A stretch of 64,000 bases of DNA from Candidatus Nomurabacteria bacterium (GTDB lineage Bacteria; Patescibacteriota; Minisyncoccia; Phycocordibacterales; UBA918): the NCBI GenBank assembly GCA_020632015.1, contig JACKGI010000001.1, positions 87,574 to 151,573 of the forward strand. Direction: 5' to 3'. The notes under the pieces were generated by a model that was not told the DNA's origin, did no database searches, and saw nothing but the letters and a program-made list of their open reading frames with translations. This document shows positions 9,977-57,965 of this stretch, one piece after another (position 1 is the stretch's first letter; every line of letters begins with the position of its first letter). Position numbers and translations under genes: made by a program.

Positions 9977-10705
9977 TTAACGATGTTTTTTAACGAAGTA
10001 CTCCTGAGAAATCATAGTTAGGTTGCTAACTACAAAATACAAAGCAATTGCTGCTGAAATTGTATAAGCCACTACTGTAATCAATACCGGCATTACAAAC
10101 CTCATTTGTGTTTGCATATTGCGCATAAAATCATCTTTCAAATTAGGTGCTGCCCCCTCTTCTTTTGGAGGTAGTTTTGGCATAGTGAGATTTACATGAA
10201 TAAATTGAGTAACACCAGCAATTAAAGCTAGAAATAAACTCCGTTCACTAATGTCGATAATACTTAGAAAGTTCATGGTCACAACCACTGGTTCGGACAC
10301 GAAGGAATATAGCAGGTCTATATTTATGTCCGGTAAAGGTACACCTCCTCCTTTGTATACTGAGAAATACAAAGCAATCACGATTGGGATTTGAAGGAAG
10401 ATTAAAAAAATACTAGCTAGTGGGTTCATTCCTGCTTCTTGGTAAATTGCCAACATGGCTTGGGACTGAGCTTGTTTGTCGTCTTTGTGTTTTTCTCTAA
10501 CCTCTTTAAGTTTTGGCTCGATTTCCCTCATTACTTTTTGGGTTTTTACCGCCTTAATCGAAACAGGAAGAAGGATTGTTTTCACAAGTAAAACAGTTGC
10601 AATAATTGCTAAACCAACATCTCCACCGGGAATAATATCAATAAAAAAAACCAGTGTGTTATAAACTGGGTCGAAAAATAAATTGTGCCAAATTGAACTA
10701 AACAT
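9977..10705 (-). CDS. yidC: membrane protein insertase YidC (short form)
   Basis: 242 aa polytopic protein in the conserved rpmH-rnpA-yidC order. LLVKTILLPVSIK and MNPLASIFLIFLQIPI are YidC/Oxa1-like segments. Confidence 0.85.
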   Translation of the reverse strand: MFSSIWHNLFFDPVYNTLVFFIDIIPGGDVGLAIIATVLLVKTILLPVSIKAVKTQKVMREIEPKLKEVREKHKDDKQAQSQAMLAIYQEAGMNPLASIFLIFLQIPIVIALYFSVYKGGGVPLPDINIDLLYSFVSEPVVVTMNFLSIIDISERSLFLALIAGVTQFIHVNLTMPKLPPKEEGAAPNLKDDFMRNMQTQMRFVMPVLITVVAYTISAAIALYFVVSNLTMISQEYFVKKHR

Positions 10706-10717
10706 AATTTCCTTATT

Positions 10718-11053
10718 CTACGCACCTTTCACCACTTCAGCAATTGACTCTTGCACAAACTCCTCGGCTGTTTTTCTAGTTAGAGAATTAAAACTTGGTT
10801 TAAGCACCACAATCAAAACACCTAGAGGATTTGTTGGTGTGTCTAATTTCTTTAGCACGGCATAAACCCTTCTCCTTAATGTGTTTCTTCTAACAGCACT
10901 TTTAGCAACTTTTTTACCAACCACTACTGAAACTTTTGTTTTTTCTTCTTCTTTAGAACGAATAATGGTTAGGTGGGGGAAGTGTTTTTTATTGCCAGTC
11001 CTAAAATATTCAGAGAATTCAGATTTTGATAATCTGTTTGATTTTTTAAACAT
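10718..11053 (-). CDS. rnpA: RNase P protein component
   Basis: Basic ~111-aa protein between rpmH and yidC, with an RNR-like motif (VRRNTLRRRVY). ATG at 11053 is preferred over the TTG at 11068 in the track. Confidence 0.8.
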   Translation of the reverse strand: MFKKSNRLSKSEFSEYFRTGNKKHFPHLTIIRSKEEEKTKVSVVVGKKVAKSAVRRNTLRRRVYAVLKKLDTPTNPLGVLIVVLKPSFNSLTRKTAEEFVQESIAEVVKGA

Positions 11054-11096
11054 AATTACTTGAATCAATTGATTATGTCACAAAACAAAAAAAGCT

Positions 11097-11246
11097 CTAT
11101 TGAGCTTTTTTTACTGTAAGTTGTGCACGACCTTTTCGGCGACGAGCTTGGAGTATCTTACGACCAGCAGTGGTTGCTGAACGAACTAAAAACCCGTGGG
11201 TGGTAGCACGCTTTCTCTTACTTGGTTGGTAGGTTCTTTTTGACAT
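11097..11246 (-). CDS. rpmH: 50S ribosomal protein L34
   Basis: Hand translation gives [49 protein letters not shown] (49 aa). It is below the ORF-track length cutoff. Confidence 0.9.
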
Positions 11247-11319
11247 ATCTGTAGAATTAGTACTTGGGAACTATACAGGAATATTTAAAAAATTCAATAG
11301 TGGGGGAGGTTGTTTAGAG

Positions 11320-11423
11320 TTGTTCACAGTTTATACACAGTTGCGTTTTTTGATTCTTAAAAAGGGTTTTTAAAATCTGAAATTTTTGAAAAAGATTTAC
11401 AGTTTTCCACACAGAGGTATAAT
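11320..11423. promoter_or_regulatory. DnaA-box-like sites and dnaA promoter
   Basis: ttgttcaca 11320-11328, ttatacaca 11331-11339 and ttttccaca 11403-11411, compared with the consensus TTATCCACA. TATAAT at 11418-11423. Confidence 0.5.
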
Positions 11424-11452
11424 GCAATTCACTGTTCGAGTTTACATAAGTT

Positions 11453-12838
11453 ATGAATCCAATTTCTCACTCACCATCCAACAATAGTATCGTTCAAACT
11501 GAACAAGTAGATGTTAAGCAATTGTGGGATGATGCTTTAGTTAAGATTGAACTCTCTATTACTACAGCCAACTTTAAGACTTGGTTTCGTGACACACACA
11601 TCGTCTCTCTTGAGGATGGCACAGCAACTGTTGGTGTACCAAGTGTTTTTGTTAAAGACTGGTTGCAAGATAAATTCCATAACATGGTTCTTAAAACGCT
11701 TCGTGACCTTACTCCACACGTAAGAAGTGTTGAATATACCGTTGCTCAACGAAATGAAAGAAAGCGAGAATCAAACAAAAATCAAACAGTAAACGCTTCT
11801 CTTCCTTTGGAAGACTATTATATAAACAAAAGTGACAACCTAAATCCAAAGTATTCTTTTGAAAATTTTGTAGTTGGACCATATAACGCCTTGGCTCATG
11901 CGGCAGCAAAAACAGTTAGTGAGAAGCCAGGTATCACATATAATCCACTGTTTATTTATGGTAAGACTGGCCATGGTAAGACCCACCTTATCCAAGCAGT
12001 AGGGAACCAAATAAAGAAAACTGGTAAGAAGGTATTTTATGTTACCAGTGAACGGTTTGCAGTTGATTACTTCAACTCACTCCAAAACGGAACGGCTAAT
12101 AATTTCAAAGATCGTTATCGTCAATATGATGTTTTGATTATGGACGATGTTCAGTTCTTGGCAACTAAAGAAAAGACTCAGGAAGAACTTTTCCATCTTT
12201 TTAATGCACTACACGACACAAACAAACAAATCGTTTTCTCTAGCGATCAACACCCAGCTCTTTTGAATGGGATGGAAGAAAGACTTCAGTCTCGATTTGC
12301 TCAAGGTATGATTGTTGACTTACCGGCTCCAGATTTGGAATCTAGAGCAGCTATTCTTAGGGCAAAATCTGCTCAAAACAACATAACCCTTCAAGATGAC
12401 GTGGTTGATCACTTAGCGCAGAGTATTGAGGGTAATGTGAGGGAGTTGGAAGGGGCTCTTAATACCATCATGTGCCAATCCCAGCTCCTTGGACGAACTT
12501 TATCAATTGATGAGGTTAGAACTATTATCAAAAATAGTTCTCGACCAAGAAAAACTCTAGCTATTGCTGATGTAGTTGACAAAGTTGCTCGATACTACGA
12601 TATAGACCAGGCAAGTATCTATGAAAAAACTAGACGGAAAGAGGTTGTTAAACCGAGGCAGATAATTATGTATATTTTGAGGGAAGATTTTCAGGTTTCT
12701 TACCCTGCTATCGGAAAGAAGTTGGGAGGTAGGGACCACACAACAGTAATTCACTCCTGTGAGAAAATTAAAGCTGAATTAAAAGGCAACTCTGAACTTG
12801 AAGAGGAGATAACTCAAGTCAGACTTCTCTTGAAATAA
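11453..12838 (+). CDS. dnaA: chromosomal replication initiator DnaA
   Basis: Walker A GKTGHGKTHL, Walker B IMDDVQFL, and C-terminal DNA-binding helix region GGRDHTTVIHSCEKI. Confidence 0.95.
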   Translation: MNPISHSPSNNSIVQTEQVDVKQLWDDALVKIELSITTANFKTWFRDTHIVSLEDGTATVGVPSVFVKDWLQDKFHNMVLKTLRDLTPHVRSVEYTVAQRNERKRESNKNQTVNASLPLEDYYINKSDNLNPKYSFENFVVGPYNALAHAAAKTVSEKPGITYNPLFIYGKTGHGKTHLIQAVGNQIKKTGKKVFYVTSERFAVDYFNSLQNGTANNFKDRYRQYDVLIMDDVQFLATKEKTQEELFHLFNALHDTNKQIVFSSDQHPALLNGMEERLQSRFAQGMIVDLPAPDLESRAAILRAKSAQNNITLQDDVVDHLAQSIEGNVRELEGALNTIMCQSQLLGRTLSIDEVRTIIKNSSRPRKTLAIADVVDKVARYYDIDQASIYEKTRRKEVVKPRQIIMYILREDFQVSYPAIGKKLGGRDHTTVIHSCEKIKAELKGNSELEEEITQVRLLLK

Positions 12839-26255: not shown

Positions 26256-26462
26256 TAATCATTACTTTGTCGTCACGAGTTACTAACCAGAATCATTCGC
26301 TACGCTCTGATTCTGCTAAGTACTCTCGACCCCGGCTCGCTGTTCGCCGCCTTAGGAAAGGGCGACTCACAACGCTCCGCCTCGGACAGACGCCGCGAGT
26401 GACATTGGTCACTCGCTAAATGAAAACACCAGTCATGTGACTGGTGTTTTCATTTGCGTCTG
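26256..26462 (-). repeat. GC-rich tRNA-3'-flank module E1 (downstream of tRNA-Lys)
   Basis: Hairpin 26421-26455. tcactcgctaaat (26409-26421) is shared with E3. The 36-mer at 26283-26318 is 34/36 identical to E2 (40194-40229) in the same orientation relative to the tRNA. Confidence 0.5.
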
Positions 26463-26535: not shown

Positions 26536-26700
26536 GAATATTTATTATATCCACCATCTTCTTAATTAAGGGGTAGATAGTGCGGGGCACTGTCTACGCT
26601 ACTGAACTAAGACTAAGGGCGGGAATATTTATTATATCCACCATCTTCTTAATTAAGGGGTAGATAGTGCGGGGCACTGTCTACGCTACTGAACTAAGAC
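26526..26700. repeat. 2 x 87-bp perfect tandem repeat covering the tRNA-Lys 5' end and upstream region
   Basis: 26526-26612 equals 26613-26699. Each unit carries the first 10 nt of the tRNA plus TATAAT-containing upstream sequence and a degenerate D-arm-like tail, actgaactaag. Confidence 0.9.
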
Positions 26701-39927: not shown

Positions 39928-40002
39928 GCTCCCGTAGTTTAATGGATAAAATATTGGTTTGCGGTACCAGTGCTCCAGGTTCGATTCCTGGCGGGAGCAC
40001 CA
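39928..40002 (+). tRNA. tRNA-Arg (anticodon GCG), CCA encoded
   Basis: Acceptor GCTCCCG/CGGGAGC, anticodon stem TTGGT/ACCAG, loop TTGCGGT, T arm CCAGG-TTCGATT-CCTGG, ACCA end. Confidence 0.85.
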
Positions 40003-40264
40003 ACAGCCGACCCCGATGCGCATGCATCGGGGTCTTTGCTGATGGTAGCTACTGACAGAAATCGAACCGAGTCGCGACGAAGTCCACAGGCGAAGCCGAG
40101 GACCGCGACGAGTGGAGGTCAATGGAGTGAGATATTTTGTGACGACAGGAAACAAAATATCCACGAGAGTGACCGATTCCTGGCGGGAGCACGTAGCAGA
40201 ATCAGAGCGAAGCGAATGATTATGGTTAGATAAAATTTTCTGGGAGAAAGTTTTATCTAACCAT
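40003..40264 (+). mobile_element. GC-rich tRNA-3'-flank module E2, bounded by a 19-nt direct repeat of the tRNA-Arg 3' end
   Basis: cgattcctggcgggagcac occurs at 39982-40000 and again at 40174-40192. There is an 11-bp hairpin at ~40009-40034, a 36-mer (40194-40229) shared with E1, and a 14-bp hairpin at 40222-40264. Confidence 0.45.
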
Positions 40265-47165: not shown

Positions 47166-47356
47166 GTGCGCGATGAGAGACTTGGCGCCAGTTCTAAACT
47201 CGTCATTCTTCCTTGTTAAGAACTCGCTGCCCCGGCGCTCAAATCGTCCTCACTTCGTTCCGGGCGATAAATTCGCTTTCTTCAAGTCTCCCCTCACTCG
47301 CTAAATCTGAGACACAATAGACCCCAGACTATACAGTCTGGGGTCTATTGGTCTAG
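47166..47356 (-). mobile_element. GC-rich tRNA-3'-flank module E3, bounded by a 19-nt direct repeat of the tRNA-Val 3' end
   Basis: gtgcgcgatgagagacttg occurs at 47356-47374 (tRNA) and at 47166-47184. A 15-bp hairpin sits at ~47317-47349. tcactcgctaaat (47294-47306) is shared with E1. Confidence 0.45.
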
Positions 47357-47429
47357 TGCGCGATGAGAGACTTGAACTCCCGACCTTCTCGGTGTAAACG
47401 AGCTGCTCTACCAACTGAGCTAATCGCGC
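47357..47429 (-). tRNA. tRNA-Val (anticodon UAC)
   Basis: Acceptor GCGCGAT/ATCGCGC, D arm GCTC..GAGC, anticodon loop TTTACAC, T arm GGGAG-TTCAAGT-CTCTC. 73 nt, no CCA. Confidence 0.9.
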
Positions 47430-55905: not shown

Positions 55906-56394
55906 TCAACCTAGTAAGCTTTTACGCTCTCGATATATAAGTAAAGCAATAATTGCATCAATCACAATTACACCGAGTAGTACAATTGAATGAGTGTGCG
56001 TAAATCTATATACTTCATATACTACAAACCCACTAATCAAAACTATAGTTAAGGGGAATGCCCACATCTTGTGCTTTAGTAGCAAAATCGAAAGAGTGAT
56101 ATCTAATATCCCCCAGAATAAAAAATAAATAGCCACGAAGTATGTGATGGTTATAGGAAAATTGTTCACTATTGGGGTCAGTGTTTGTATTAGTATGTCA
56201 TTGGGATCTTGTGAAAGTTCGTGACTTGCTATTTTATAAAAAATGTCAGAGATAGGGGTACCAACCACATTAAGGAGAATAAAACCAAATATAAGTCGAA
56301 AGAAGCCATATCCAATCCGCCACCACATAGCGATACGGAATAGAAACGTTTGAGTACCGCTTGATTCTTTATATGAACTTTCGTAGTTAGTCAT
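55906..56394 (-). CDS. four-TM membrane protein (DUF2127-like)
   Basis: 162 aa, four hydrophobic helices. TGGTATACT (-10 at 56402-56407) lies 7 nt before the ATG. Confidence 0.55.
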   Translation of the reverse strand: MTNYESSYKESSGTQTFLFRIAMWWRIGYGFFRLIFGFILLNVVGTPISDIFYKIASHELSQDPNDILIQTLTPIVNNFPITITYFVAIYFLFWGILDITLSILLLKHKMWAFPLTIVLISGFVVYEVYRFTHTHSIVLLGVIVIDAIIALLIYRERKSLLG

Positions 56395-56472
56395 TTCAAT
56401 GAGTATACCAGTTCAAGCCTCTCATTAGGGTATCTAGAAAAGCCTTATAAAACTTACTTAAAAATGCGGGGC

Positions 56473-56676
56473 GGCTACCGGTAATCGTCCTGACGGTCAC
56501 CAAGTTATTTTATTTCGTACCTCATAAAATAACTGGTGCCGCGGGACACGGCTCCTTTGTTTGCAAGCTCACATCAGTCCACCGTTCGATTCCGGACGAA
56601 AGTGACGCAGGTCACTTTCTTAGCACTTTCACCAAAAAGAAACCTCTTCCAAAAGGGAAGAGGTTTCTTTTTGCCG
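56473..56676 (+). ncRNA. ~200-nt structured, partly GC-rich insertion ending in a strong terminator
   Basis: Absent from the paralogous segment at 57283-57384. 15-bp hairpin at 56498-56538. GAAAGTGAC/GTCACTTTC hairpin at 56598-56619. T-loop-like GTTCGATTCC. Terminator aaagaaacctcttccaaaagggaagaggtttcttttt at 56636-56672. Confidence 0.35.
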
Positions 56677-56760
56677 ATGGGCGACGTCGTAGAGGATGTT
56701 CGAACTGTGTTTGAACGATTGCAAGATGAAACGATTTGCATTCCAGTATTCAAGTTCTAG
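56677..56760 (+). CDS. mini-ORF (27 aa), paralog of 57344-57451
   Basis: MGDVVEDVRTVFERLQDETICIPVFKF. The first 36 nt are identical to the paralog, and the remainder is conserved at the protein level (D.T..IP.F). Confidence 0.3.
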   Translation: MGDVVEDVRTVFERLQDETICIPVFKF

Positions 56761-56780
56761 AAAATAAAAAATATTTCAAT

Positions 56781-57272
56781 CTATTCAGGTAAATCTATTA
56801 TGTCAGACAGGTATTGACCAGTTTGTAGAAACACCACATTTGAACCTTCAAATCTATCCGTCTGCTCTTTGTTACTAGCGAAAGAAGCATCAATAAATCT
56901 TTCTACCATCTCTGGTTTATTTCCTCTTGAAATATATCGTTTTCTATATTCATCTTGGAGATTTTCGTCAGCACAAACAACTGTCACTTCGTATCCTCGG
57001 GCAGTTAGTTCTTTTACTATTTCAGGGTATGAGCTTATCAGTAGCAAATTATTTTGCCTCATTTCTTCTTCAATCTTTTTAAGATAATTGTCTGGCCAGG
57101 TTTGGTCTTTACGGTAAGGGCTTGAATCTAAATCAAGCACACTTATGTCGCTAGTCGAAAAATTATCTATCAAAGTAGTTTTTCCGATACCAGGAGTTCC
57201 AGCAATAATTCCTTGTGGTTTTATTTTCTCGATACTCTCGTTCTTCTCAATTCTAAATTTTTCTCCTTCCAT
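56781..57272 (-). CDS. P-loop NTPase/kinase-like protein
   Basis: GIIAGTPGIGKTTL Walker A, ~163 aa from MEGEKF. TGGTATACT (-10 at 57282-57287) lies 9 nt before the ATG. Confidence 0.6.
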   Translation of the reverse strand: MEGEKFRIEKNESIEKIKPQGIIAGTPGIGKTTLIDNFSTSDISVLDLDSSPYRKDQTWPDNYLKKIEEEMRQNNLLLISSYPEIVKELTARGYEVTVVCADENLQDEYRKRYISRGNKPEMVERFIDASFASNKEQTDRFEGSNVVFLQTGQYLSDIIDLPE

Positions 57273-57343
57273 ATTAAAAATAGTATACCAGTTCAGACCT
57301 CCCATTAGGGTGTCTGAAATATCCTTATATTACCTGCTTCAAA

Positions 57344-57451
57344 ATGTTGGGCGACGTCGTAGAGGATGTTCGAACTGTGTTTGAGGATAGGAATGATGTG
57401 ACGTTGTATATTCCTATGTTTAATTGTGTAAGTGTTGCTACAATAAGTTAA
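57344..57451 (+). CDS. mini-ORF (35 aa) translationally coupled to the nuclease gene
   Basis: MLGDVVEDVRTVFEDRNDVTLYIPMFNCVSVATIS. The stop overlaps the next start (TAATG at 57449-57453). Confidence 0.4.
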   Translation: MLGDVVEDVRTVFEDRNDVTLYIPMFNCVSVATIS

Positions 57452-57924
57452 TGAAAACAATGGAAATAACTTTTGCTCGAAACTTAGTAAAAGGAAAAAT
57501 AGCAGAAACAGTCTTTGCACAGATGCTTCGCTCAACTGGGCAATTTACTGTATTAGAGTTTGGTTACGAAAAAATCATTCCAGAGCTAGTAGGAAGAGGG
57601 AAGTCTGAAAATGATGAAATGGTGGAAGCACTTCGTACCGCTCCAGATTTTGCTGTAATCAATAATAAAACCAAAGAAGTACATTTGATTGAGGTAAAGT
57701 ATAGACACAATTTTTCTAATAGTGCGGTACTGAGTATTGCTAAAAGAATGAGTGCAAGTTGGAATCCCTCGTATTTATTTGTTGCAACAGTTGAAGGATT
57801 TTATTTTGGAGAAGTTAGAGACATTATCAAACGGAAAGGAAAAATTGATTTACTTAACCATCCTCAAATCTCTAAAAAGACTCAGGAAAATTTTTTGAAG
57901 ATATTAAATGACTTTGAGTCTTAG
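57451..57924 (+). CDS. PD-(D/E)xK nuclease-fold protein (Hjc/YraN-like pattern)
   Basis: GKIAETVFAQML...APDFAVINNKTKEVHLIEVKYR gives a D...ExK arrangement. Start at MKTMEITF is preferred over the upstream non-ATG start in the track. Confidence 0.5.
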   Translation: MKTMEITFARNLVKGKIAETVFAQMLRSTGQFTVLEFGYEKIIPELVGRGKSENDEMVEALRTAPDFAVINNKTKEVHLIEVKYRHNFSNSAVLSIAKRMSASWNPSYLFVATVEGFYFGEVRDIIKRKGKIDLLNHPQISKKTQENFLKILNDFES

Positions 57925-57965
57925 AACACTTCATTGTACTAATAACCCACCCCGAATACACTACT

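Follow-up and report, generated by a model that had tools for sequence, protein, structure and literature searches.

Two promoter-bearing segments of a Candidatus Nomurabacteria genome are probably attachment-site junctions of a serine recombinase family targeting tRNA-His

We analyzed a 64,000-nucleotide stretch of a Candidatus Nomurabacteria contig (the window), in which two segments each place a promoter-like module upstream of a minus-strand gene and a small open reading frame (mini-ORF) on the other side. Both segments are probably attR-type junctions in an array of small cassettes, left by a serine recombinase (LSR) family that targets the 3′ end of tRNA-His in Paceibacteria-type Patescibacteria. 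On this reading they are an uncommon instance of a familiar type of mobile-DNA scar and not a new regulatory device.

Homology and gene content of the two segments

A repeat search of the window returned two aligned pairs, D1 (56393–56473 versus 57273–57353; 81 nt, 77% identity, spacing 880) and D2 (56678–56753 versus 57348–57423; 76 nt, 76%, spacing 670), and the difference in spacing shows that the left copy is longer by 210 nt. The homology proposed in an earlier, sequence-only reading was thus confirmed, each segment comprising about 150 nt, with 205–210 extra structured nucleotides in the left copy. The block shared by the two mini-ORFs is 100% identical in BLAST over the 37 nt that follow the ATG (56678–56714 and 57348–57384) and stops exactly at an LSR stop codon (see below). 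The element TGGTATACT (the reverse complement of 56402–56410 and of 57282–57290) indeed lies upstream of both minus-strand ATGs, at 7 nt in the DUF2127 gene and 9 nt in the NTPase gene. Scans with promoter and terminator consensus sequences scored neither this putative extended −10 nor the A/T-flanked hairpin of the left copy. The duplication is not an artifact of assembly, since independent assemblies (L004, L009, L045 and L046) hold both copies. The features of the region are:

55906–56394, minus strand: DUF2127 gene (PF09900), predicted to be leaderless and driven by promoter module P1
56402–56467, no strand assigned: promoter module P1, a tRNA-His trailer-type, putatively bidirectional promoter segment with the extended −10 TGGTATACT, 77% identical to P2
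56468–56633, minus strand: M module copy 1 (the earlier "insert"), whose minus-strand end GATTACCGGTAGCCGCCCC is a copy of the tRNA-His 3′ end
56633–56678, no strand assigned: bidirectional terminator-like hairpin with 18-bp arms (56633–56650/56656–56673) and flanking A and T runs
56679–56714, plus strand: A-box 1, consisting of the core GGGCGAC (56679–56685) and an LSR remnant, the last 11 codons plus stop (GRRRRGCSNCV-stop)
56677–56760, plus strand: mini-ORF 1 (MGDVVEDVRTVFERLQDETICIPVFKF), with the C-box at 56701–56744
56781–57272, minus strand: cassette cargo gene for a 163-aa P-loop NTPase, predicted to be leaderless from P2
57282–57348, no strand assigned: P2 module, the plain trailer type without an M module, homologous to the P1 module
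57349–57384, plus strand: A-box 2, consisting of the core GGGCGAC (57349–57355) and an LSR tail remnant
57344–57451, plus strand: mini-ORF 2 (35 aa), with the C-box at 57371–57414 and a stop codon overlapping the ATG of the next gene (TAATG)
57451–57924, plus strand: uncharacterized cargo gene of 157 aa, downstream of mini-ORF 2

The assignment of the left minus-strand gene as DUF2127-like was borne out by the PF09900 match; no related loci were found in JGI metagenomes. This gene and the genes to its left are constant across strain variants and the sequence to its right varies; the DUF2127 gene is the chromosomal (B′) flank of the cassette array. For the second minus-strand gene, the P-loop NTPase assignment drew weak AAA_18/AAA_24 matches and nothing stronger, and short contigs break on either side of it. 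No Pfam match was obtained for the 157-aa cargo gene.

The shared block is the 3′ end of serine recombinase genes

In related Patescibacteria, the identical block GGGCGACGTCGTAGAGGATGTTCGAACTGTGTTTGA forms the 3′ end of LSR genes and encodes GRRRRGCSNCV-stop. Intact LSR genes of 566–574 aa, with Resolvase, Recombinase and Zn-ribbon domains, end exactly in this A-box at L133, L136, L141 and L147, as do C-terminal LSR remnants at L094 and L099. Window positions 56679–56714 and 57349–57384 equal the last 36 nt of the intact genes at L136, L141 and L147; the LSR of L133 ends differently, in GPGSRGCSNCV-stop. The exact GRRRRGCSNCV-stop is encoded by 59 of 108 repeat copies, and in the window the ORF at 57145–57384 terminates in VGRRRRGCSNCV followed by the stop.

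GGGCGACGTCGTAGAGGATGTTCGAACTGTGTTTGA opens with 7 nt that are reverse-complementary to the tRNA-His 3′ end. Among close LSR homologues (120 homologues in all), most end in GRLPGIEPE..PVPQTG..TVI, which is translated antisense tRNA-His, and a few in GRRRRGCSNCV. In L174 and L175, the LSR gene (10001–11749) and the tRNA-His gene, c[11680,11753], overlap at the LSR 3′ end, and in L175 junctions of P and of a ..CAGTAG trailer with the A-box lie 10.5 kb upstream of this tRNA-His/LSR end. More distant homologues end in antisense T-arm-like peptides (..GIEP..), suggesting that targeting of tRNA genes is a habit of the family. An intact LSR adjoins a junction in just 4 of 120 metagenome loci, most arrays being without an LSR.

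The repeats are anchored downstream of tRNA-His

The segments had been taken for a private two-copy duplication; they are instead members of a dispersed family of co-oriented repeats, anchored at tRNA-His and present in hundreds of copies. A tRNA-His gene is found in 10 of 32 genome loci and makes up 32 of the 50 tRNAs in 120 metagenome loci, and every repeat copy that shares a locus with it lies downstream and antisense (48/48; 10 + 38). Where a contig or locus holds more than one copy, the copies are co-oriented without exception (7/7 genome contigs and 20/20 metagenome loci). The tRNA-His genes in L013, L026, L028 and L033 end in GTCGCCC, to which the core GGGCGAC is reverse-complementary; the end in L031 differs (GCCGCCC).

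The sequence on the other side of the core is also tied to tRNA-His. In reverse complement, the P module directly follows a genuine tRNA-His or its M module at L033, L028, L026, L137, L142, L054 and L173. Moreover, each sequence type found to the left of GGGCGAC in junctions (P, P′, terminator-M, a ..CAGTAG hairpin and a ..TTAG hairpin) is likewise seen behind genuine tRNA-His genes as their native trailer, and these five trailer types join the A-box at one and the same nucleotide.

Strains with an identical DUF2127 gene or an identical P2 hold different cargo, the breakpoints falling at the core or within the A-box, which is indirect evidence for recombination at these junctions. In strain variants L047, L049 and L050, P2 is identical and divergence begins only past GTTCGAACT; the 157-aa cargo gene is swapped there for another gene, and the sequence diverges from the window after 57414. 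Among the cargo, toxin-antitoxin, acetyltransferase, nucleotidyltransferase and Fic-type genes are abundant.

The two partners expected at the locus of an attR junction, target gene and recombinase, were not found here: the window and L001 hold no tRNA-His gene, and tblastn detected no LSR homologue in the window. Either the array has become detached from its tRNA-His anchor, or this gene is situated in another part of the genome.

A model for the formation of the junctions

As expected for attR, the element-side sequence is an LSR gene end, a short core is common to the element site and the tRNA-His target, and the chromosome-side sequence is a native tRNA-His flank of one of the types listed above (P, P′, terminator-M or the two hairpin-type trailers); the reciprocal attL, an LSR ORF running into antisense tRNA-His, is seen in relatives only. 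We suggest that in the free element the LSR gene would end GGG CGA CGT CGT AGA GGA TGT TCG AAC TGT GTT TGA (the A-box), with the C-box following. Crossover would probably take place in or beside GGGCGAC, the 7-nt core that doubles as the reverse complement of the final tRNA-His bases, and the LSR itself presumably catalyzes these events. Upon integration, the LSR body would run into antisense tRNA-His on the attL side, and the A-box and C-box would be joined to the former tRNA trailer on the attR side.

Each window copy would accordingly be read as a tRNA-His trailer followed by A-box and C-box. The trailer of the right copy would be the plain promoter module P, and that of the left copy a longer natural variant made up of terminator hairpin, M module and P, which would explain why this copy appeared to be interrupted by an insert. 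Between the junctions lies a cassette (A-box/C-box 1, NTPase, P2) that carries no recombinase and would need an LSR acting in trans, unless it is a fixed relic. The P module may serve as a portable divergent promoter, its putative extended −10 giving rise to leaderless cargo mRNA on one side and the module supplying, on the other side, the ATG that would open the junction-spanning mini-ORF. Internal junctions also hold P-type trailers on cassettes, and the model does not explain how these trailers were acquired.

The junction-spanning mini-ORF

The mini-ORF peptide (MLGDVVEDVRTVFE...) is conserved elsewhere: other genomes and metagenomes contain 154 unique copies. Of 108 copies, 105 have I, V or L at codon 19, in the C-box, and 102 have Y, F or H at codon 20; across the 26 genome-set copies the I/L/V codon never departs from T in its second position, and third positions are 2–3 times more variable. 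The distant copies L016 and L039 keep the peptide and have lost the DNA palindromes. Coding in the antisense frame was rejected, as the invariant second-position T would there become a variable first/second-position pattern. The idea that the mini-ORFs are truly coding stands in part: conservation is at the peptide level and codon-position specific, but there is no conserved start codon. The codon before GGC is ATG in 15, CTG in 38, TTG in 21, GTG in 6 and TAG/TGA in 14 of 108 copies, and LSR-linked copies have no start codon ahead of GDVVED. The mini-ORF overlaps the LSR tail in another frame. Its peptide matches no Pfam family and appears as only 2 called proteins in a set of 5.8 billion. 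The mini-ORF is presumably translated. The C-box lies 30–75 nt from the core, beyond a typical LSR att site of about 50 bp, and its peptide-type conservation is not accounted for by the att-site model alone.

A more far-reaching proposal would make the system an integron-like cassette platform on tRNA-His. The C terminus of the serine recombinase would be rewritten, being a Cys-rich tail in the free state and an antisense-tRNA-coded tail in the integrated state, and integration would bring host promoter, ATG, A-box (read in its +1 frame) and C-box together into a new junction-spanning small ORF that reports or controls the integrated state; the M module would be a second, non-essential landing pad or a processed tRNA-like RNA. 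We consider this proposal unlikely.

Site-specific exchange versus homologous recombination

The repeats might also do without a dedicated recombinase. As copies of the region downstream of tRNA-His, they would then multiply, and exchange their cargo, through homologous recombination and unequal crossing-over, and the LSR link would be a historical accident, the end of one element having been copied along. The breakpoints do lie inside the longest identical block, and homologous recombination would put them in the most conserved block just as readily; direct orientation is also a product of unequal crossing-over, and LSR genes are absent from most arrays. However, the LSR ORF of dozens of independent homologues leads from the core with precision into antisense tRNA-His, and that of others leads into the A-box; site-specific exchange at a single point should yield these two products. 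The junction of the five trailer types with the A-box at an identical nucleotide, and the tRNA-gene-targeting habit apparent from the ..GIEP.. tails of distant homologues, likewise speak against homologous recombination as the sole process, which we regard as quite improbable.

The M module in the left copy

The extra ~200 nt of the left copy had been described as highly structured and as related to modules flanking tRNA genes, and both descriptions hold. The minimum free energy is −89.5 kcal/mol (z = −7.05 on the plus and −6.70 on the minus strand), and the tRNA-Lys flank elsewhere in the window (26272–26417, minus strand) is related by nhmmer (E = 5.7e-9). In addition, 56467–56624 (minus strand) matches an nhmmer profile made solely from other genomes (E = 2.3e-17), which places it in a family of modules that follow tRNA genes on their own strand. 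The insert contains a perfect 18-bp hairpin (56633–56673; arms 100% complementary). A second M copy in the same genome (L001:368-588) is 85.6% identical, with fully compensatory hairpin changes; such changes are found in its terminator-like hairpin, which has a counterpart at the same position after tRNA-His in L028, L026, L018 and L031. Helices P1, H1, P2 and H3 were identified in M modules. Among 13 sequences, H1 shows double-sided compensatory changes in 7 of 9 pairs, and helices P1 and P2 show few; MAFFT and RNAalifold over the 13 modules recovered just helices P1 and H1, the central region aligning poorly. M modules occur at several tRNAs (His, Val, Arg and Lys) within one genome.

On its minus strand, the M module is a putative mimic of a tRNA-His minihelix, with a 9-bp acceptor-like helix P1, the hairpin H1 and a helix P2 pairing the T-stem/T-loop 3′ strand. 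The supposedly T-loop-like GTTCGATTCC is actually the complement of the strand that pairs with the tRNA-His 3′-end copy, the module being oriented on the minus strand. The module, a conserved element in its own right, may be an RtT-like RNA processed from upstream transcripts or, about equally likely, a decayed, gene-less mini-integrative element that brought its own tRNA 3′ end.

Match to a known RNA family had been raised as a way in which the insert might turn out to be familiar. In 56468–56677, cmscan found no Rfam family at the gathering threshold or at E ≤ 10, terminator-hairpin noise aside, and searches of the window, L001 and L011, run at the gathering threshold and more permissively, gave nothing for the insert or related modules; ARAGORN reported neither a tRNA nor a tmRNA. 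A tmRNA or two-piece tmRNA, considered for the GGGGCGG start and the T-loop-like motif, was rejected given several copies, no tag ORF and a motif on the wrong strand, as was a retroviral-type primer-binding site (suggested by 19 nt complementary to the tRNA 3′ end), for want of a reverse transcriptase. T-box, 6S or SRP RNA, IS200/605 omega-RNA or PATE, IS110 bridge RNA, and folded single-stranded attC or CTX-like sites were also dropped.

The sequence-only reading had seen in this copy the result of a local duplication of a divergent-promoter/mini-ORF unit, one copy of which was then hit by a mobile ~200-nt element that would terminate, re-drive or regulate the mini-ORF; spelled out, the element would act as a plus-strand small RNA or riboswitch-like leader transcribed from P. 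This scenario draws on the promoter-like P upstream and the strong hairpin with T-run downstream of the 200 nt on the plus strand, the fold z-score of −7, GGGCG at both junctions, and the strain variants L005 and L008, which lack the 200 nt here. However, no ancestral unit was split: promoter, module and terminator form the native flank of genuine tRNA-His genes (L018, L026, L028, L031, L073, L143 and others), and together with the mini-ORF the same order recurs in at least 12 other loci, in a repeat family that numbers in the hundreds rather than two. The "atg..gggcg" repeats at the junctions do not mark an insertion, being the recombination core common to tRNA-His and the integrase gene end, and in L005 and L008 the whole downstream region is replaced, leaving no clean empty site. 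Moreover, the M module lies opposite in strand to the mini-ORF in 35 of 36 pairings, its minus-strand fold is the better one in 10 of 13 cases, and the lack of an Rfam match offers no help; nothing supports a riboswitch-like regulator of the mini-ORF. We judge such an insertion to be very improbable.

Hardly any credence can be given to a miniature transposable element (a MITE or BOX-like mosaic repeat carrying a promoter and a small ORF to many insertion sites), for which the modular make-up (a 54-nt B unit that is absent, single or double, along with structured inserts of 85–170 nt), the copy number (at least 13 in one MAG) and the breaking of assemblies at the repeats could be cited, in view of the strict co-orientation within contigs, the placement downstream of one tRNA gene, the lack of terminal inverted repeats or target-site duplications around the unit and of a transposase consistently nearby, and the absence of copies from viral contigs (zero IMG/VR matches for two patterns). 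On the same IMG/VR result, a viral origin was rejected.

Comparison with known systems

Read as LSR junctions, the repeats resemble several known systems in part. In the composite SCC and pseudo-SCC islands of staphylococci, CcrAB integrates at the 3′ end of rlmH/orfX. Common to both are an LSR with Resolvase, Recombinase and Zn-ribbon domains, one constant integration target on the chromosome (the 3′ end of a conserved gene), tandem co-oriented accretion with short core-containing repeats between elements, and many units that have assorted accessory genes and no recombinase. In contrast to SCC, the target here is a tRNA gene (tRNA-His), the recombinase ORF spans the site, with its last 10–22 codons exchanged (GRRRRGCSNCV versus antisense-tRNA-coded GRLPGIEPE...), units are often single genes of 0.7–2 kb, and each junction carries a predicted bidirectional promoter and a junction-spanning small ORF; the recombination activity of the present system is a prediction.

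In SSV-type archaeal integrases, attP lies inside the int gene, and integration into a tRNA gene partitions int. There too, recombinase ORF and attachment site overlap, the att core has exactly the sequence of a tRNA gene's 3′ part, and integrated copies leave gene fragments beside tRNA genes. The SSV enzyme, however, belongs to the tyrosine recombinases and is divided into large N and C parts, whereas the serine recombinase here swaps a short C-terminal tail and remains intact.

Integron arrays share with the present repeats the co-oriented, mostly single-gene cassettes, a conserved structured site between them, a single platform anchor and cargo rich in the same gene classes. Unlike in integrons, there is neither an IntI-type tyrosine recombinase nor attC architecture here, and the cassettes have their own putative promoter and genes in both orientations. 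A tyrosine integrase was also rejected as a candidate: Phage_integrase is absent among the 25 most-matched Pfam families listed (136 + 144 ORFs) and among tRNA-His neighbours, and no tyrosine-recombinase box I/II motif was found in ORFs of at least 120 aa from the genome-set loci and the window or in 846 metagenome-locus ORFs. A literature search on tRNA-His integration or cassette arrays in Patescibacteria returned nothing relevant.

The M module, but not the rest of the repeat, recalls tyrT-rttR-tpr (rtT) of E. coli, where units of about 180–190 nt lie downstream of a tRNA gene, end in a copy of its last 18–19 nt and are associated with a tiny ORF; in E. coli, 178-bp repeats overlap the tyrV 3′ end, and rttR and the 29-aa tpr are annotated. 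M modules differ in having no sequence or Rfam similarity to rtT, in being single rather than tandem, in occurring at several tRNAs in one genome, and in holding an inverted copy of the tRNA 3′ end, which lets them fold into an acceptor/T-arm mimic. A part played by rtT RNA in the stress response is mentioned in 10.1101/2024.07.17.603846.

Implications

The LSR-junction reading accounts for a conspicuous, previously unannotated repeat of Paceibacteria-type genomes that breaks assemblies and marks their main strain-level hot spot of gene content, the region downstream of tRNA-His. It points to a serine integrase family with a defined, short natural target (the tRNA-His 3′ end plus trailer) and a predicted attP, and such tRNA-His-targeting integrases could serve genome engineering in organisms that at present lack genetic tools. 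The tRNA-mimic flank modules beside several tRNA genes form a puzzling class of conserved structured elements. Both the C-terminal swap of the recombinase and the small ORF assembled at the junction are unusual and could act as built-in sensors of state.

Two homologous segments in the window

A repeat search of the window returned two matching blocks whose spacings differ by 210 nt, so that the left copy must hold extra DNA:

56393-56473 and 57273-57353: first block, left and right copy, 81 nt, 77% identity
56678-56753 and 57348-57423: second block, 76 nt, 76% identity
56678-56714 and 57348-57384: opening of the second block, 37 identical nt (BLAST)
Left-copy flank, minus strand: DUF2127 gene (PF09900)
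Right-copy flank, minus strand: P-loop protein of 163 aa, weak AAA matches

Both segments had been described in a sequence-only reading, together with a promoter motif they share, and we found TGGTATACT 7 or 9 nt ahead of the ATG of the minus-strand gene in each copy. The PF09900 match bears out the DUF2127-like neighbor; the other neighbor is a P-loop protein with weak AAA matches. The window was traced to contig JACKGD010000003.1 of assembly GCA_020632115.1. Because both copies are present in independent assemblies, they are not an assembly artefact. The right mini-ORF ends in a stop codon that shares bases with the ATG of the 157-aa gene behind it (TAATG, 57449-57453), an arrangement typical of translational coupling. 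The extra DNA is strongly structured, as proposed, with fold z-scores of -7.05 (plus strand) and -6.70 (minus strand) and a perfect 18-bp hairpin, and it matched no Rfam family, tRNA or tmRNA.

The mini-ORF repeat is dispersed and modular

A codon-degenerate pattern covering the mini-ORF peptide's C-terminal half matched 32 loci in species-representative genomes and more than 120 in metagenomes, with at least 154 unique copies in total. The peptide therefore occurs elsewhere, and a private local duplication is contradicted by its dispersal over many Patescibacteria MAGs and metagenomes. The genome loci lie in Patescibacteria MAGs labelled Kaiser-, Adler- or Nomurabacteria, Paceibacterota or "Saccharibacteria"; the lone exception, a Puniceicoccales-labelled MAG (L035), was handled as a chance match. 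Following a mini-ORF homologue into another MAG uncovered a 17.7-kb region that has eight or more copies of the promoter/mini-ORF modules.

Parts of the repeat unit
A-box: GGCGACGTCGTAGAGGATGTT
C-box: CGAACTGTGTTTGAG..GAY..ACN..ATHCC
B unit: 54 nt, in frame, present 0, 1 or 2 times
Structured inserts: 85-170 nt, beginning with a stop codon

Optional inserts, either the B unit or structured inserts, enter the unit at a single fixed point, exactly between GAGGATG and CGAACTG (L011:11800-11935, L008:1650-1745, L011:790-880 and others). The 54-nt unit, DLIFNDRREYKNGNTLVV, occurs singly or as a tandem pair and always in frame, and the 85-170-nt inserts open with TGAGAAAGTG and have hairpins showing compensatory changes. 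A further motif, (C)CCCACCCC(T)GAATACACTA, recurs at 57938-57960 in the window and at L001:686-705, L008:175-194, L032 and L041; in some relatives it follows the C-box directly and in frame (..YPTPEHTI), and in others, as in the window, a cargo gene separates the two.

The repeat is linked to tRNA-His and to a large serine recombinase

A tRNA-His gene lies inside the 8-kb locus in 10 of the 32 genome matches and accounts for 32 of the 50 tRNAs among the 120 metagenome loci listed. Wherever repeat copies and tRNA-His fall within one locus (10 and 38 copies in the genome and metagenome loci listed), the copies always lie downstream of the gene and on the opposite strand, and copies were co-oriented in 7/7 multi-copy genome contigs and 20/20 multi-copy metagenome loci among those listed. 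The first 7 nt of the A-box, GGGCGAC, correspond in reverse complement to GTCGCCC at the 3' end of tRNA-His. On the complementary strand, promoter module P is the sequence found behind genuine tRNA-His genes, either as their immediate neighbor (L033, L137, L142, L054, L173) or with a terminator hairpin and a structured module in between (L028, L026). Five kinds of sequence stand left of GGGCGAC, namely P, a second promoter type (P'), terminator plus module, and hairpins ending in ..CAGTAG or ..TTAG, and all five are also native trailers of genuine tRNA-His genes.

A Resolvase domain was detected by Pfam in 3 of 144 ORFs of the metagenome loci listed. These large serine recombinases are 566-574 aa long and combine Resolvase, Recombinase and Zn-ribbon domains. 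In L136, L141 and L147 the gene ends in ...GGG CGA CGT CGT AGA GGA TGT TCG AAC TGT GTT TGA (GRRRRGCSNCV-stop), which is the A-box read one base off the mini-ORF frame, the C-box coming after the stop codon; the L133 end differs (GPGSRGCSNCV-stop). Most close relatives among 120 recombinase homologues end instead in GRLPGIEPE(L/F)(P/S)VPQTG(A/V)(L/I)TVI.., which is antisense tRNA-His in translation, begun at the same GGG CGA codons. The recombinase gene of L174 and L175 (10001-11749) runs with its final 23 codons into tRNA-His (complement 11680-11753), and L175 has a P-to-A-box junction ~10.5 kb and a second A-box junction ~11.3 kb upstream of this overlap.

Site types at GGGCGAC
attP-like: recombinase on the left, A-box on the right
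attB: trailer on the left, tRNA-His on the right
attL: recombinase on the left, tRNA-His on the right
attR: trailer on the left, A-box on the right

These four are the set expected of site-specific exchange at or next to GGGCGAC. More distant recombinase homologues end in peptides typical of an antisense T-arm (..GIEP..), and the family as a whole thus probably targets tRNA genes. Tails in the distant homologues P0049-P0106 (such as ..PRGIEPRFPG, ..GFEPATPSLQMRCSTK and ..RLERGTFTLRGCCSTN) look as if they translate the antisense T-arm or acceptor region of tRNAs other than tRNA-His; these recombinases may generally run on into the tRNA gene that they target.

The window read as a probable array of junctions

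On the plus strand, the order is DUF2127 (minus), P1, M module (the extra DNA), terminator, A-box/C-box 1, NTPase (minus), P2, A-box/C-box 2 and the 157-aa gene, with boundaries between P1 and M, between terminator and A-box 1, and between P2 and A-box 2. The right copy would represent a plain P-type trailer joined to an element end, and the left copy a longer trailer variant (terminator, M and P) joined to the same kind of end. Read on the minus strand, the window has mini-ORF 1, reverse-complemented, at the very position that tRNA-His occupies in L028 or L026, and the same hairpin, module and promoter come next. The extra DNA had been read as ~200 nt inserted into an ancestral unit; this is not supported, as terminator, M and P in this order form the trailer of genuine tRNA-His genes in those loci. 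The repeat atg..gggcg seen at its ends stands, and would have two sources: the module start, a reverse-complement copy of the tRNA-His 3' end (GGGGCGGCTACCGGTAATCG), and the att core. The order promoter-module-terminator-A-box recurs in L014, L017, L026, L028 and L036 and in at least seven further cases in the metagenome set.

The 37-nt identical block stops exactly at the recombinase-frame stop codon, and the ORF at 57145-57384 ends in VGRRRRGCSNCV, so the recombinase reading is kept in the window copies. L005 and L008 have DUF2127 and P1 as in the window, behind which come a mini-ORF of 51 aa that includes a B unit and then a gene for 468 aa; L047, L049 and L050 have the NTPase, P2 and A-box in common with the window, and after GTTCGAACT continue into another C-box allele (VRTIFEQINDTTLYIPTFHYLN) and another gene. 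These strain variants support cassette-type replacement. Neither a recombinase homologue nor tRNA-His was found in the window, and the local cassettes are thus non-autonomous or relics. Related arrays carry toxin-antitoxin pairs, aminoglycoside nucleotidyl-/phosphotransferase-like proteins, Fic, GNAT, methyltransferases and transporters, which is typical accessory material. The cassette beside tRNA-His in L136 (L136:8984-9463, minus) has a gene for a P-loop protein of 159 aa, a distant relative of the window NTPase (34% across 67 aa, E=6e-6); small kinase-like P-loop genes may recur as cargo.

The M module resembles tRNA-flank modules

A profile built from other genomes' modules only matched the window at 56467-56624 (minus; E=2.3e-17) and at 26272-26417, downstream of tRNA-Lys on its strand (E=5.7e-9), confirming the suspected kinship with tRNA-flank modules.

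Parts of the His-type module, in tRNA sense
Helix P1: GGGCGRCUA / UAGYCGCCC, the tRNA-His acceptor stem including G-1:C73
H1: 9-bp hairpin, compensatory changes on both sides in 7/9 pairs
Helix P2: CCGGGAAUCG / CGAUUCCCGG, in which the T-stem 3' strand is paired together with part of the T-loop
Inner hairpins: GAGCGNAGCGAA loop conserved in one of them

Folding was more stable for the tRNA-sense strand in 10/13 modules, this strand also having the larger number of G-U pairs (36 vs 24), and the module lay on the strand opposite the mini-ORF in 35/36 pairings among the loci listed. The two arms of the L026 and L018 modules are closer to each other than to the resident tRNA-His; conservation thus appears to concern either the helix as such or the whole unit as something transferable. 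A second copy (L001:368-588, 85.6% identical) lies on the same contig outside the window, about 9.4 kb past window position 56395; one hairpin is wholly swapped by compensatory changes (GAAAGTGAC-GCAG-GTCACTTTC vs GCGAGCAAA-GCAG-TTTGCTCGC), and the terminator stem shows such changes too. This copy is preceded by another trailer type, P', with hairpin ATCTTCATAAAATGAAGAT, and its terminator is followed by GGGCACGTACTGTCTCTCGGGTGGAACC..., a further structured module also present at L011:15870-15995.

The tRNA-Val and tRNA-Arg(GCG) flanks in the window share the module plan, in which the tRNA end recurs ahead of the downstream repeat as an imperfect inverted copy and the segment between folds; the tRNA-Lys surroundings are listed with them:

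47356-47429, minus: tRNA-Val; last 18 nt (AAGTCTCTCATCGCGCAC) again 190 nt downstream (47356/47166)
47166-47355, minus: terminator hairpin, imperfect inverted copy of the tRNA-Val 3' end, folded core
39928-40002, plus: tRNA-Arg-GCG; last 18 nt (GATTCCTGGCGGGAGCAC) again 192 nt downstream (39983/40175), with a hairpin bearing a GAGCGAAGCGAA loop motif behind the downstream repeat
40003-40192, plus: tRNA-Arg flank; in the structured segment between the repeats, the T-arm/acceptor 3' strand recurs inverted
26272-26417, minus: tRNA-Lys flank, His-type homologue without a direct repeat of the tRNA end
26536-26685: upstream of tRNA-Lys, 63-nt promoter-region segment doubled around a 24-nt fragment resembling the tRNA-Lys 5' end

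Coding potential of the mini-ORF

At C-box codon 19, 105/108 copies have I/V/L and the second-position T is invariant; at codon 20, 102/108 have Y/F/H; Thr and Pro are each written with several synonymous codons. Judged by these codons, peptide-level conservation of the C-box is real. In the distant L016 and L039 (GKVVQEVRTVFE) the peptide is kept and both 8-bp palindromes, CGACGTCG and GTTCGAAC, are lost. The start codon is not conserved, a stop codon standing directly ahead of GGC in 14/108 copies, and recombinase-linked copies have no available mini-ORF start. Real coding, as originally claimed, is thus backed for the C-box peptide but not for the start. A-box variation is mixed, recombinase-frame wobble sites (CGA>CGG, GGA>GGY; in the mini-ORF these turn D into G or A) and mini-ORF wobble sites both being among the most variable, as a dual-coding stretch would show. 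Two candidate readings remain: an ORF assembled only at trailer-to-A-box junctions, with promoter and ATG from the trailer, or a C-box that would extend the recombinase at its C-terminus, a +1 shift at GUU UGA giving exactly the frame of the C-box.

Comparison with known systems

Compared on defining features in the loci searched, the window system is neither an integron or MITE nor a riboswitch or known sRNA. SCC and pseudo-SCC elements are serine-integrase islands; they pile up in tandem at the end of one gene, many units lacking a recombinase, and in SSV-type integrases the recombinase ORF spans the att site. Similarly, window-type arrays would accrete in tandem at a single gene end, many without a recombinase, and the tRNA-His-linked recombinase ORF spans the att site. 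What sets the present system apart is tRNA-His as target, a swapped C-terminal tail, a promoter at each junction, a junction-spanning ORF and associated tRNA-mimic modules. The closest known architecture to the M module is the E. coli tyrT-rttR-tpr region, where 178-bp repeats overlap the tyrV 3' end and rttR RNA and a 29-aa tpr ORF are annotated; a stress-response role of rtT RNA is cited in 10.1101/2024.07.17.603846. The two share no sequence or Rfam similarity.

Taken together, the observation of the sequence-only reading is confirmed and its interpretation partly supported. Many public assemblies of the window population break exactly at the M module or the junction repeats (L002, L003, L006, L007, L010, L048-L050). 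The M module and junction repeats limit assembly contiguity and mark strain-variable DNA.
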